This document shows positions 4,134-48,027 of a DNA stretch of 50,724 bases, one piece after another. Made by a program: the position numbers and the translations under genes. Each line of letters begins with the position of its first letter. Positions within the stretch are counted from its first letter, which is position 1. This stretch comes from a virus (taxonomy: Duplodnaviria; Caudoviricetes), in the IMG/VR virus record IMGVR_UViG_3300027777_000051, positions 1 to 50,724 of that record. One strand, given 5' to 3'. The notes under the pieces are model-generated. The model worked only from the letters and a program-made list of their open reading frames with translations. It ran no database searches and was not told where the DNA came from.

Positions 4134-4149
4134 TGGCACGATTCTTGCT
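4134..4149 (+). promoter_or_regulatory. Sigma54 -24/-12 promoter TGGCACGATTCTTGCT
   Basis: Matches the TGGCACG-N4-TTGCW consensus; intergenic and co-oriented with the downstream replication genes. Confidence 0.9.
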
Positions 4150-4159
4150 TACATACATT

Positions 4160-4560
4160 TGTCTGGAGAGTTAATTTTGTGCCATGCGAAAAGGTAAGTG
4201 ATAGTATCTTTAGGTAGTCTGAATTAAACTGGAGGCACACAGGGTGAGAGGTGAACTCATCCTTCATTGGATAACCAGTTAAGATTACCGACTGTCACAT
4301 TAAGATTTCCCTGCGACGGCTCTGGATGGCAAGTAGCCTGAAAGAGTAGCAGGTGCAAAGCTACCGACCGACTATTTGATATGCACGATACGTCATGGTA
4401 ACTGTATCATCTGTGAGAGTTGGTAGTATAGTCTGTTCCGCTGAGACTATAAAATAGCGGTGGCTTCTGCCTTGGTTGAACAGTAATTGAGGCTAGTGGA
4501 TTACAGGTTTATAAAGTGAAGTTCCGATGCCCACGATAAAAGTATCATCAAAAACTTGAC
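4160..4560 (+). ncRNA. Putative structured ncRNA or leader
   Basis: ORF-free; nested pairs GTGATAGT/ACTGTCAC, GGTAGTCT/AGATTACC, AACTGG/CCAGTT, AGGGTGAG/CTCATCCT, TATAGTCT/AGACTATA, several with G-U pairs. Confidence 0.55.
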
Positions 4561-4561
4561 T

Positions 4562-4674
4562 GGTTGCTTGGCCGAGTTTGGTTCAAGGCCGTCTGTTAAT
4601 AAGCTTGCCTTTTTAAGCGAGAGACAATGCGTAACGCAGATGCACGTTGGTTCAAATCCAACAGCAACCTACCA
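4562..4674 (+). ncRNA. tRNA-like RNA with enlarged anticodon domain
   Basis: Acceptor GGTTGCT/AGCAACC, D-arm TGGCCGAGTTTGGTTCAAGGC, T-arm GTTGG-TTCAAAT-CCAAC, followed by TACCA; no 7-nt anticodon loop assignable. Confidence 0.7.
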
Positions 4675-4716
4675 ATTTGTTAATCGGTCAACAGAACAAC
4701 AGAACAATTATTACAC

Positions 4717-5322
4717 ATGTCAAACGATAAGCCAATCACAGTTACATATCCTGATGCTACTACTGCACAACGAGTAGTAGATTTAGTAGTGAGAAAGAAA
4801 CCTCAAGGTTGGGGAAGACGTTCGTATTCATCATACTATCGTGAGGAGTATGCGTTGTGGATTAAACGTGAGCTAGATGCTATGGACATAGATAAGAAGC
4901 CGCGAGCCTTTCCTTATTCGTCATGGAAGAACTCCACACCGAATACTATTTACCTACGAGTTAACCAAGCATGGCACTATCTCCGCGATTTTATGGATTC
5001 AGATGGGAAGTATGAGAAGATGTTTCATCAGATTAAAGTATCTCGTGTTCACGGGTATGGAGTGACGATGGAGTATAAAGAGATAGCTGGTGAGATGCCA
5101 GCAGGAGAGGTCTTTGTTCCTCGGTCAGAAGAGAAGAAGTGGAAGAAGCAGATTGATGATTATCTGAATGACGATAGTATCACGAAGCCGTTACATATAT
5201 CACATCTCATTCTCACTCCAGAAGAAGTGAAGAAGGTTACTGATGAGTTGTCAGACCTGTCGACGATACAGTTTGTTGTGAAGCATAACGAAATAAAAAT
5301 CGTGAAAATGATTTCATACTAA
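4717..5322 (+). CDS. Hypothetical protein
   Basis: 201-aa ORF with ATG start, coupled to the next gene. Confidence 0.8.
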   Translation: MSNDKPITVTYPDATTAQRVVDLVVRKKPQGWGRRSYSSYYREEYALWIKRELDAMDIDKKPRAFPYSSWKNSTPNTIYLRVNQAWHYLRDFMDSDGKYEKMFHQIKVSRVHGYGVTMEYKEIAGEMPAGEVFVPRSEEKKWKKQIDDYLNDDSITKPLHISHLILTPEEVKKVTDELSDLSTIQFVVKHNEIKIVKMISY

Positions 5323-5849
5323 TGAAAATTTTAACTGTAAAAAGCAAAGGGCTTTTAGTCCATATTAAATTGGACGATGAAGACTATGAACGTATATCAA
5401 AGTTCAATTGGACTTGTTCTGGTGGCTCAATTCACAGAAGCTATCAGCCAAACATGGCAGAGGATGGTGCTTATATTGAAGCAAAGAAAAGAAAAACAAT
5501 TAGTGTTTCTATAGCAAATGAGATACACAATACTCGTGGCATTCTTTATGACCATGTAGATAGAGATGGTCTTAACAATCAGAAAGAAAATTTACGACCA
5601 GCATCTCGTGAACTTAATAGGAGAAATAGCTCAAAGATGAAAGGTTCTTCATCAAGATATATGGGTGTGTGTTTGTTTATTAGAAACAATAAGTTTAGTG
5701 CAGGATTAAAATTTAAGGGTAAAAGAATCCATCTTGGATATTTTGATACAGAGCTTGAGGCTGCTCACGCATATAATGTTGCGTGTATAAAATTTGGTGT
5801 TGACTTAATAAGTAATCTGAATAAGGATGAGCATGGGAATATCCTATGA
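5322..5849 (+). CDS. HNH endonuclease with AP2 DNA-binding domain (homing-endonuclease type)
   Basis: DHVDRDGLNNQKENLR (HNH) and SSRYMGV...KRIHLGYFDTELEAAHAYN (AP2). Confidence 0.9.
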   Translation: MKILTVKSKGLLVHIKLDDEDYERISKFNWTCSGGSIHRSYQPNMAEDGAYIEAKKRKTISVSIANEIHNTRGILYDHVDRDGLNNQKENLRPASRELNRRNSSKMKGSSSRYMGVCLFIRNNKFSAGLKFKGKRIHLGYFDTELEAAHAYNVACIKFGVDLISNLNKDEHGNIL

Positions 5850-6085
5850 CAATCGAACAAGCGATTGGTATGTCAGCGGCTGAGTTAGAAGCCATGACAG
5901 ACGAAGATTTGAAGAAACACTTTGACCATTATTTAGCAGTAACTCGGCCAGAGAACGCTCCTAAAGCAATACAACAAGAACAACGAGTATTGATAGCTGA
6001 CCCTAAATTTGCTGCGGCGCAGAAGTTAGCGGCGAGTATGGGGATACAGTTACCGACATTCAAACCAATAGGTAGAAAGAAATAA
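5846..6085 (+). CDS. Hypothetical protein
   Basis: ATGA overlap; operon packing. Confidence 0.75.
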   Translation: MTIEQAIGMSAAELEAMTDEDLKKHFDHYLAVTRPENAPKAIQQEQRVLIADPKFAAAQKLAASMGIQLPTFKPIGRKK

Positions 6086-6088
6086 TAG

Positions 6089-46637: not shown

Positions 46638-46907
46638 ATGATTACTCCAGAGCAAGTAGTCCAAGCCATCTATCAGACAGAAGGTGGCTCACATACTCGA
46701 TATCCTTATGGAATCAAATCTATTAAAACAAACAATCCTCGACAAGTCTGTGAGAACACTGTTAAGCATGCTCTACATGACTATAAGTTACACAGTATTG
46801 ACCGTGGGTTTATTTACTTTCTTGCTAATAGATATTGCCCTCCTAGTTGTGATTCTGTGGGTAACAGGAATTGGAAAGTTAATATGGTAAGAATACTGCA
46901 TTTATGA
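46638..46907 (+). CDS. Small lysozyme-fold-like protein (putative)
   Basis: AIYQTEGG...YGI and FLANRYCPP...NWKVNM resemble minimal muramidase/transglycosylase-like phage proteins. Confidence 0.5.
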   Translation: MITPEQVVQAIYQTEGGSHTRYPYGIKSIKTNNPRQVCENTVKHALHDYKLHSIDRGFIYFLANRYCPPSCDSVGNRNWKVNMVRILHL

Positions 46908-47141
46908 TTAATTTAACTTTAGTAGAATCTATCACTTATGAAATAGCATGGTTTGAATACTGCTTTCGTAAATGGTGGCAAGAACAACCTACAATTGACT
47001 ACTCAATATGAATTACACAGATACACAACTCAAACAAGCTCTGGCGAAGATGTTGCCGAATAGAGCAGTTGAGTGGAAAACATTTCACGCCACATGGCAA
47101 CAACGCGTGATAGCCCTGTGCAAAGTGAAAGGGATTGAGAT

Positions 47142-47342
47142 ATGAACCTAATGCACGAGTTTAGCCATCCAATGTGGGTAAAAACACCGCTTGGTGAAGG
47201 TTTGGCAATCATGGTTATCGACTACGGAATACACCTAAACAGTTGTTGGGTGGTTGCGTTGGAACAACACGAATGGCAGATTAAACATTTTGATTCTAAC
47301 GATATAAAGCTGAACCGAAACGATACTTGGAAAATACAATAA
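47142..47342 (+). CDS. Hypothetical protein
   Basis: 66-aa ORF, VKTPLGEGLAIMVIDYG. Confidence 0.6.
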   Translation: MNLMHEFSHPMWVKTPLGEGLAIMVIDYGIHLNSCWVVALEQHEWQIKHFDSNDIKLNRNDTWKIQ

Positions 47343-47419
47343 TATCATATGAAACCTACTATACTAACAAACGAACAACTCTGCGACGCAGTTCTTGTCG
47401 CTACCGGAAAGACAACGCT

Positions 47420-47743
47420 ATGACCACACCAACCCCCGAACAACAAGCGAAGGCGACAGAAATAATTGATAAGCACGGTGCGGCAATAGTAGCGGCAATG
47501 TTACAGGCTGACCAAGAGACGCAATTAGTAAATGCGCTTAAGATGCTGCGAAACGAACTCGCCGCCCTCATTGCCAAAGCTGACGAGCGGGAGTTGGCGA
47601 TACAAAATAAAGCACTCCTCTCGGCAGGGAATGAGTTGGCAAAATGTGCGTTAAACATAGGTCACACATCAGTAGGAGTTACTAGCGTGATACTTCGCAC
47701 AGAGCAAGCCCTCACCAACTGGCAGAACTTGACAAAGGAATAA
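47420..47743 (+). CDS. Hypothetical helical protein
   Basis: ATG at 47420 preferred over the TTG start. Confidence 0.6.
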   Translation: MTTPTPEQQAKATEIIDKHGAAIVAAMLQADQETQLVNALKMLRNELAALIAKADERELAIQNKALLSAGNELAKCALNIGHTSVGVTSVILRTEQALTNWQNLTKE

Positions 47744-47772
47744 ACAAACAACATAAACAACATAACAAACAT

Positions 47773-47943
47773 ATGAGTAACATTGCACCAATCTTCTACA
47801 CAAACGACGCTACTACAAAATCAAAAACATTCAGTCTCACTCCTCGTTCTTGGAATCGTGGAGTTAAACCTTACTCAATTAAGGTTCAATCAAAGGCATG
47901 TATTATCTGGAACAGTGGAACTCGTTTCGGCTCTTTCAAATAA
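47773..47943 (+). CDS. Hypothetical protein (56 aa)
   Basis: Read by eye, MSNIAPIFYT...; A-rich leader like other genes. Confidence 0.55.
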   Translation: MSNIAPIFYTNDATTKSKTFSLTPRSWNRGVKPYSIKVQSKACIIWNSGTRFGSFK

Positions 47944-47958
47944 TATAACCCCTAACAA
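47941..47958 (+). promoter_or_regulatory. 18-bp promoter-associated motif TAATATAACCCCTAACAA
   Basis: 53 nt upstream of the sigma54 box at 48012. Confidence 0.7.
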
Positions 47959-48011
47959 TTTGCTATAACTATACGTTCATAGCCATAGCATTTATACCAT
48001 CGCTATTTACT

Positions 48012-48027
48012 TGGCATGGAAAATGCT
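48012..48027 (+). promoter_or_regulatory. Sigma54 promoter TGGCATGGAAAATGCT
   Basis: GG-N10-GC spacing, intergenic; nearest promoter upstream of the helicase-ligase-activator genes. Confidence 0.8.

Follow-up and report, generated by a model that had tools for sequence, protein, structure and literature searches.

The window analysed in this study is the whole of the IMG/VR record IMGVR_UViG_3300027777_000051, a viral contig of the class Caudoviricetes that comprises 50,724 nt with 42% G+C and is complete or nearly so. Comparative evidence from this genome and its relatives supports the core of the first-pass annotation, according to which the phage has no RNA polymerase (RNAP) or sigma factor, encodes its own sigma-54 activator of the bacterial enhancer-binding protein (bEBP) type and bears sigma-54 promoters at the heads of its main gene blocks. 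Seven sites with the pattern TGGCAYG-N5-TGCT are, judging from their sequence and conservation, probably functional sigma-54 (-24/-12) promoters of middle and late phage genes, so that the phage most likely has much of its genome transcribed by the sigma-54 RNAP of its host. The activator gene and the seven sites are listed below.

3177..4091 (+): minimal sigma-54 activator (bEBP), 304 aa; Pfam Sigma54_activat (PF00158), E 1.4e-53
4134..4149 (+): predicted sigma-54 promoter TGGCACGATTCTTGCT, directly after the activator gene; predicted start near 4159
23586..23601 (-): putative sigma-54 site, intragenic, inside open reading frame (ORF) 23406-23858; 184 nt upstream of g23 (22295-23401); predicted start near 23575
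34493..34508 (-): predicted sigma-54 promoter; the capsid-like gene g35 (33004-34338) lies 154 nt downstream; predicted start near 34482
41917..41932 (-): predicted sigma-54 promoter heading the whole minus (virion) arm; predicted start 41906
42625..42640 (+): putative sigma-54 site where the plus arm starts; 425 nt of ORF-free sequence, then ORF 43066-43647; predicted start near 42651
45312..45327 (+): putative sigma-54 site; the next 717 nt are ORF-free and fold strongly; predicted start near 45338
48012..48027 (+): predicted sigma-54 promoter, 85 nt upstream of g58; predicted start near 48038

Promoter pattern and encoded activator

The first-pass annotation had placed seven sites at 4134(+), 23586(-), 34493(-), 41917(-), 42625(+), 45312(+) and 48012(+), and exactly these seven matches were recovered from the window. 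Its estimate that well under one would arise by chance was refined to a computed expectation of 0.05, and seven or more sites were reached in none of 100 shuffles. A looser form of the pattern, TGGCAYN6TGCW, for which 0.38 matches are expected, returned the identical seven sites. The proposed check with an RpoN-type position weight matrix (PWM) was also carried out: a matrix trained solely on the eight sites of one relative recovered 7/7 window sites with scores of 11.7-27.4 bits, and at a threshold of at least 10 bits it found 14 matches in the window versus a mean of 2.5 in 20 random genomes. All seven sites are oriented in the same direction as the next gene, in agreement with the earlier claim that they point with local transcription. 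Intergenic placement was found for 6/7, with non-genic sequence making up 11.8% of the window according to our own gene calls (probability of at least 6/7, 1.7e-5). The count of six, which had been proposed from the first reading, is correct, since the 23586 site falls inside the conserved ORF 23406-23858; this ORF was skipped by our gene caller, yet it is conserved in 7/9 relatives.

The textbook sigma-54 consensus contains GG and GC dinucleotides 10 bp apart within TGGCAC-N5-TTGCW. The GG-N10-GC spacing was invariant in 7/7 window sites and in 59 intergenic, co-oriented sites of the phage family described below, and the positions that the search pattern leaves free also agreed with the consensus, including T at -1 (36/59 family sites), G or A after TGGCAY (57/59) and A or T after TGCT (56/59). 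When the family sites were aligned on the promoter, no fixed-distance upstream element common to all of them was found, and the enrichment of -24 half-sites on their own was not clear.

Orientation was then compared among promoter-type patterns in the upstream regions of 10 family genomes. The sigma-54 pattern occurred 33 times in the forward and 4 times in the reverse direction, versus forward/reverse counts of 27/20 for TATAAT, 18/20 for TAnnTTTG and 22/16 for TTGACA, while the counts of rarer composite promoter patterns were too small to judge. A Bacteroidota-type -7 box had no orientation bias in these regions. Among the promoter-type patterns tested, clear orientation with downstream genes was limited to the sigma-54 pattern. 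In the window outside 13701-41299, sigma-70-like matches were not above those in shuffled sequence (23 vs 25.2 and 26 vs 32.7).

The claim of an encoded activator was confirmed by the Pfam match given above, by its sequence motifs and by its predicted fold. The protein carries Walker A (GETGTGKE), GAFTGA and Walker B (LFLDEIGD) motifs, together with FRIDLYARI in the arginine-finger region and LNVRSLEQ at sensor II. Its AlphaFold2 (AF2) model has a pLDDT of 90, and about 245 model columns superpose on the central AAA+ domains of FleQ, FlrC, NtrC1, PspF, ZraR and NifA with a TMt of about 0.8. An alignment of 32 family members shows the protein ending about 15 aa past sensor II, and no DNA-binding domain was detected at the C terminus, with no helix-turn-helix (HTH) match in Pfam and nothing beyond the AAA+ lid in the model. 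About 65 aa precede the AAA+ core as an N-terminal module, which is conserved in the family and is modelled as a small helix-helix-hairpin-helix. No N-terminal regulatory domain of the REC, GAF, PAS or V4R type was identified by Pfam, which gave AAA+-type families alone and left residues 1-70 uncovered. In sister clades (loci L107-L138, for example L107, L121 and L129), the activators are 235-250 aa long and a site lies 19-23 bp after the stop codon; these versions are too short to contain the whole module, which argues that it is dispensable for core activity.

The absence of an RNAP or sigma factor, as claimed at first, agreed with searches for several families. No match to Sigma70_r2 (sigma-70 region 2) was obtained in six frames at E up to 1, a model that gp55-like divergent factors might escape; no match to Sigma54_DBD was obtained in six frames, with a positive control in Bacteroides thetaiotaomicron; and the RpoN box was absent from 10/10 genomes. 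The sole protein large enough for an RNAP, and the largest of the phage, is an ART-PolyVal polyvalent protein of 1837 aa.

Relatives and survey of activator loci

A search with the capsid-like protein g35 led to 13 IMG/VR loci, among them G001, which had been found first by an activator search and which contains 8 pattern sites versus 0 in the reversed control. Of the 12 further loci, 11 were examined, including 8 records that are at least 90% complete. Sites were present in 11/11, and the 8 records contained 6-10 each versus 0-2 in the control. The activator was present in 8/8 of these records and gone from 3 records, all of which are 40-66% complete fragments. The co-occurrence check suggested earlier thus found the activator and the excess of sites together in 9/9 near-complete relatives.

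For the analysis of positions, ten complete genomes were oriented, their genes were called and homologues were mapped. They contain 76 pattern sites; 69 of these point the same way as the gene that follows, 60 fall outside called genes, and sites at syntenic junctions are kept though the proteins are only 30-85% identical. A site was located 137-158 nt upstream of the g35 homologue in 10/10 genomes. The 4134 site, in the gap between the activator gene and g7, has a positional equivalent in 9/10, and the site at the head of the minus arm in 8/10. A site precedes a detectable g58 homologue in 7/10 genomes and is found by position alone in 2 more. The least conserved among the minus-arm sites is 23586, with an exact positional equivalent before g23 in 3/10 genomes and a weak one in G001.

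A wider survey with an activator profile yielded 154 IMG/VR contigs. The analysis was limited to the 80 best of them; six rows in which the ORF was cut by a contig end and one broken ORF of 70 aa were excluded. The 63 loci with intact activators of 200-340 aa contained 127 sites per 0.98 Mb versus 1 in the control, and 118/127 were on the strand of the activator. At least one site was found in 60/63 loci, and a site lay within 400 bp after the activator stop in 51/63 and within 70 bp in 44/63. A GAFTGA-like loop was present in 60/63 of these short family members. The 10 loci with cellular-type bEBPs (367-692 aa) had 4 sites versus 2 in the control and no other gene in common with the phage. 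Parts of the window's replication module are common to all short-activator loci, which thus make up one broad lineage with several subclades.

This lineage is large and no one-off curiosity: besides the 154 contigs, a protein collection contained more than 120 clusters (90% identity) of relatives of 280-330 aa, many on contigs of 46-54 kb. Among 50,697 deposited phage records, neither a DNA match nor a match to the capsid-like protein was found; the bEBP matches in deposited 'phage' records carried annotations such as NtrC, ZraR and AtoC, and these records resemble bacterial contigs. Species-representative bacterial genomes contained no homologue of the capsid-like protein and no prophage copies, and scanning them with the activator profile retrieved ordinary cellular bEBPs alone, at 35-49% identity and from many phyla; neither scan pointed to a host.

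Translation signals were examined at the start codons of the 10 family genomes. Shine-Dalgarno cores were found in 21% versus 13% at random, and the regions upstream of start codons were A-rich, with peaks at -3, -6, -11 and -14, and 60% of genes had T at -1. Leader words rich in A and C, for instance AACAAACA, occurred 33 times forward and once in reverse. Weak Shine-Dalgarno use combined with A-rich initiation regions resembles the pattern of Bacteroidota, and from these two features we infer that the host may belong to this phylum, which has rpoN.

Proposed mode of action and alternative explanations

If the seven sites are sigma-54 promoters, the host sigma-54 holoenzyme would bind them as closed complexes, and the activator, once made, would form a ring and open these complexes from solution without a specific enhancer. 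Opening would activate the replication/recombination block through 4134, the virion arm through 41917, 34493 and 23586, and the plus-arm units through 42625, 45312 and 48012. The 34493 promoter would drive the capsid-like gene via a conserved leader, 41917 the whole virion arm, starting with a nearly leaderless small ORF, and 23586 the genes from g23 through the ART-PolyVal protein (g23, then g22, g21 and the ART-PolyVal gene). The 48012 promoter would drive g58 through the activator, and activator synthesis could be self-reinforcing because the activator gene sits in this unit. The first activator would have to come from another source; candidates are a host sigma-A promoter that escaped recognition, or read-through, as well as a bEBP of the host and a factor brought in with the virion.

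The positive-feedback layout, already pointed out in the first-pass annotation, depends on the form of the genome. On the linear window the activator gene (3177-4091) lies upstream of the 4134 site, and it lies downstream of the 48012 promoter because the genome, whose unique sequence amounts to about 50.05 kb, is circular or terminally redundant. This form of the genome is deduced from the terminal 677 bases, which are repeated (1-677 and 50048-50724) at 94% identity; the topology entry of the IMG/VR record is linear. The unit headed by 48012 thus reads g58-g59-helicase-(junction)-ligase-...-activator.

Activation from solution by the phage ATPase is plausible because the engineered DctD250, which like the phage activator consists of an AAA+ core with no DNA-binding domain, works enhancer-free (PMC3844500). 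In that study the fragment, reduced to its AAA+ part, was constitutively active and promiscuous. It needed no enhancer to activate sigma-54 promoters, and 16/20 predicted Salmonella operons responded to it, more weakly than with an enhancer-bound activator (PMC3844500).

Several observations weigh against the interpretation of the sites as phage promoters served by the encoded activator. No promoter for the initial expression of the activator emerged from the sigma-70 scans. TGGCAT rather than the textbook TGGCAC was present in 41/59 family sites, and the 42625 site is the weakest of the seven by the cross-genome PWM, at 11.7 bits. Two or three of the promoters open into ORF-free sequence. Three short-activator loci (L110, L122 and L124) had no site within about 10 kb, and the counts from the 80-locus survey overstate independence because several of the loci are near-duplicates. 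As to factors encoded by the phage, no match to the T7-RNAP family was obtained, but the control of this search matched nowhere either and it is therefore uninformative, and most virion-arm proteins are without a family match, which leaves room for a very divergent polymerase or sigma factor.

A broader reading, which we hold only tentatively, is that a widespread lineage of uncultured phages with genomes of about 50 kb leaves promoter recognition to host sigma-54 and itself carries no more than a minimal ATPase that needs no enhancer, so that host rpoN would be essential for infection, and that the activator, with no DNA-binding domain, would also switch on the whole sigma-54 regulon of the host. 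At its strongest, this reading makes the earliest transcripts sigma-54-dependent as well; infection would then be gated by host physiology by way of a host bEBP, or be primed by a factor delivered with the virion, for which the ART-PolyVal protein is a candidate. Such full dependence, covering every transcript including the first, with infection gated by a host bEBP or by activator that arrives in the virion, seems doubtful to us. It would fit the finding that no other promoter type was clearly oriented or enriched, the one to three sites that every family genome has in the plus-arm region entered first, and the position of the activator itself behind a sigma-54 promoter; however, it faces a bootstrapping problem, as the sigma-54 holoenzyme is inactive without an activator, the scans are blind to non-canonical host promoters, and nothing indicates a packaged activator.

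An unlikely explanation is that the activator mainly targets the sigma-54 regulon of the host and that the phage sites are secondary, or act as sinks or roadblocks. A bEBP with no DNA-binding domain is promiscuous and would fire host sigma-54 promoters, as the DctD250 study indicates (PMC3844500), and several of the sites precede ORF-free sequence. Nevertheless, the sites are co-oriented and stand at fixed distances before conserved genes, as exemplified by g35, and a sink or roadblock role is disfavoured because a sink needs neither orientation nor position.

It is very improbable that the 16-mer is the binding site of another phage or host protein and merely resembles the -24/-12 consensus: the family preference for TGGCAT would suit such a site, but GG-N10-GC is invariant within a correct extended consensus, and throughout the lineage the motif strictly accompanies the GAFTGA activator, whereas control loci lack it. 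Equally little credence is given to a very divergent sigma-54-like factor or RNAP encoded by the phage among its unannotated proteins; the scarcity of Pfam/PHROG matches in the minus arm and the uninformative T7-RNAP control would accommodate one, and the six-frame searches for Sigma54_DBD and Sigma70_r2, the lack of an RpoN box and the identity of the single very large protein as an ART-PolyVal polyvalent protein speak against it.

The preferred reading, that of phage promoters opened by a phage activator, was compared with known systems. Cellular sigma-54/bEBP examples include NtrC-glnAp2, PspF-pspA and the flagellar genes controlled by FleQ/FlrC. The phage set shares with them GG-N10-GC and the extended consensus, the activator fold, Walker A/B, GAFTGA and sensor II, and it differs in being encoded by and acting on a virus genome and in having neither a sensory domain nor an enhancer-binding HTH. 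Whereas a cellular set serves one stress or metabolic regulon, about seven promoters would organise the whole 50-kb phage genome. Natural bEBPs with no DNA-binding domain are FleT of Cereibacter sphaeroides, FlgR of Helicobacter pylori and CtcC of Chlamydia; these are AAA+ cores that act on the sigma-54 holoenzyme from solution, as is proposed for the phage protein. The likeness is one of architecture alone, and in contrast to them the phage protein carries a conserved N-terminal module of its own.

Phage cascades that redirect the host RNAP include T4 late transcription (gp55/gp33/gp45), SPO1 gp28 and gp33/34, and lambda N/Q. In these, as is proposed for the phage studied here, a phage factor redirects the host core polymerase to classes of phage promoters, and T4 late transcription is likewise activator-dependent and enhancer-like. 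T4, SPO1 and lambda encode a sigma factor or an antiterminator, whereas the present phage apparently encodes none and would supply just the ATPase that unlocks host sigma-54. To our knowledge, phage transcription strategies comprise a polymerase of the phage's own, sigma or anti-sigma factors, and antitermination on sigma-70 transcripts. The remark in the first-pass annotation that this is not a described phage strategy was upheld to the extent that a search of the full-text literature, with most subscription journals outside its scope, turned up no description of a phage that combines sigma-54 promoters with a GAFTGA activator of its own. The parts are of known kinds, and their deployment as the gene programme of a virus is new.

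Nearest to the present case is Htm (Gp204), a bEBP-like AAA+ protein described from the T4-like phage Mosigvirus AV110, for which joint action with sigma-54 RNAP has been hypothesised by the authors (bioRxiv 10.64898/2026.10.06.757011). In the portion of that preprint available to us, Htm is by the authors' account without the GAFTGA loop; the discussion treats it as modulating host genes, and sigma-54 promoters on the genome of its phage are not reported there (bioRxiv 10.64898/2026.10.06.757011).

If the preferred reading is true, a phage that supplies merely an ATPase 'key' to a locked host sigma-54 holoenzyme would represent a new strategy. Host rpoN would then be essential for infection, the ATP-dependent switch would be sharp with essentially no leaky expression, and the host sigma-54 regulon would be activated as a side effect. 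In practical terms, a compact natural enhancer-free activator of 235-304 aa with matched promoters could be of use for orthogonal expression.

Gene arms, leaders and accessory features

The genes are arranged as two arms, plus and minus, and the features of the arms referred to in this section are as follows.

About 42.6 kb through the contig junction to 13.5 kb (+): plus arm, with small ORFs, ORF-free stretches and replication genes
49316-end plus 1-1494 (+): helicase gene, spanning the contig junction
4562-4670 (+): tRNA-like gene, Rfam 37.5 bits; the anticodon loop carries an insertion of about 38 nt
42409..42424 (+): near-site TGGCATGGATAATGAT, with GA replacing the -12 GC; 19.3 bits by the cross-genome PWM
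44571-45050 (+): pyrimidine-dimer DNA glycosylase ORF (Pyr_excise, E 4.6e-21) amid small plus-arm ORFs
13644-13675: perfect 13-bp hairpin within the 198-bp convergent gap separating the arms
41.9 kb down to 13.7 kb (-): minus (virion) arm, almost without Pfam/PHROG matches
41735-41905 (-): g47, 56 aa, first ORF of the virion arm; ATG at 41905, about +2 of the predicted transcript
14561-20074 (-): ART-PolyVal protein, 1837 aa; ADP-ribosyltransferase domain at residues 851-1003, E 4.6e-30
4096..4110 (+), 41982-41996 (-), 45291-45305 (-) and 47944-47958 (+): TATAAC-N3-TAACAA, each beside a sigma-54 site

The sites had been said to head the main gene blocks, and this held for the replication block, g35 and the minus arm. 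The label 'capsid' for g35 remains unverified, since Pfam, PHROGs and a PDB profile search gave nothing for it and the lone PDB row (E 0.71) is a chance match; Atlas yields a weak capsid lead, and the AF2 model of g35 has a pLDDT of 32. As for the three plus-arm units proposed at first, the sites are present, but at least two of them open with 400-700 nt of ORF-free, strongly folding sequence.

Plus-arm products include the helicase, a ligase, the activator, an HNH endonuclease, an exonuclease, a dNMP kinase, a Sak4-like protein and a split family-A polymerase, and a DUF3987 protein of this arm is read as a primase-helicase. Downstream of the 4134 site there is an ORF-free stretch containing the tRNA-like gene, followed by g7 and the recombination/replication block to 13496. 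ARAGORN made no tRNA call at 4562-4670; a tRNA-like gene occupies the equivalent place in G001, and none was found in 7 other relatives. The ORF-free stretches 42651-43065 (+) and 45338-46044 (+) have fold z-scores of -3.4 and -4.6 versus shuffles, and the stretch after the 4134 site, at -1.0, is not beyond shuffles. In relatives, ORF-free stretches of 400-700 nt also follow plus-arm sites, with patchy sequence conservation. Reassignment of stop codons was considered and rejected, as no single change opens the stretches behind 42625 and 45312. The near-site at 42409 probably has no activity or serves as a decoy.

At the head of the virion arm, g47 is kept in 4 relatives, and in the family an ORF often starts 11-24 nt past the -12 box. 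The g47 ATG at about +2 of the predicted start, taken with the short distances in relatives, implies that translation of the first virion-arm ORF would be leaderless. The leader of g35 (34339-34492, -) contains a hairpin with the invariant 8-nt loop AAGGGCAT at 34412-34419, and one or two such hairpins occur in the g35 leader of 10/10 family genomes, 28-76 nt past the -12 box. Their stems vary by compensatory changes (tcca/tgga, gtca/tgac, ctat/atag and tctc/gaga), and the loop word was found 16 times forward and 0 times in reverse in upstream regions. This hairpin is a candidate for a protein-binding RNA operator or a boxB-like element.

The Atlas neighbours of the ART-PolyVal protein are polyvalent or internal-core virion proteins. 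T4 Alt is a virion-delivered ADP-ribosyltransferase that modifies the host polymerase, and by analogy the ART-PolyVal protein might, speculatively, be a virion-delivered modifier of the host polymerase tied to the transcription switch.

The motif TATAAC-N3-TAACAA has 4 matches in the window versus 0.53 expected. As a universal upstream element it was rejected: it lies 35-38 bp upstream of the post-activator promoter in 4/10 genomes and is absent elsewhere. The duplicated contig ends (1-677 and 50048-50724) look like a circular assembly closed across two strain variants. The hairpin at 13644-13675, between the two arms, is likely a bidirectional terminator.

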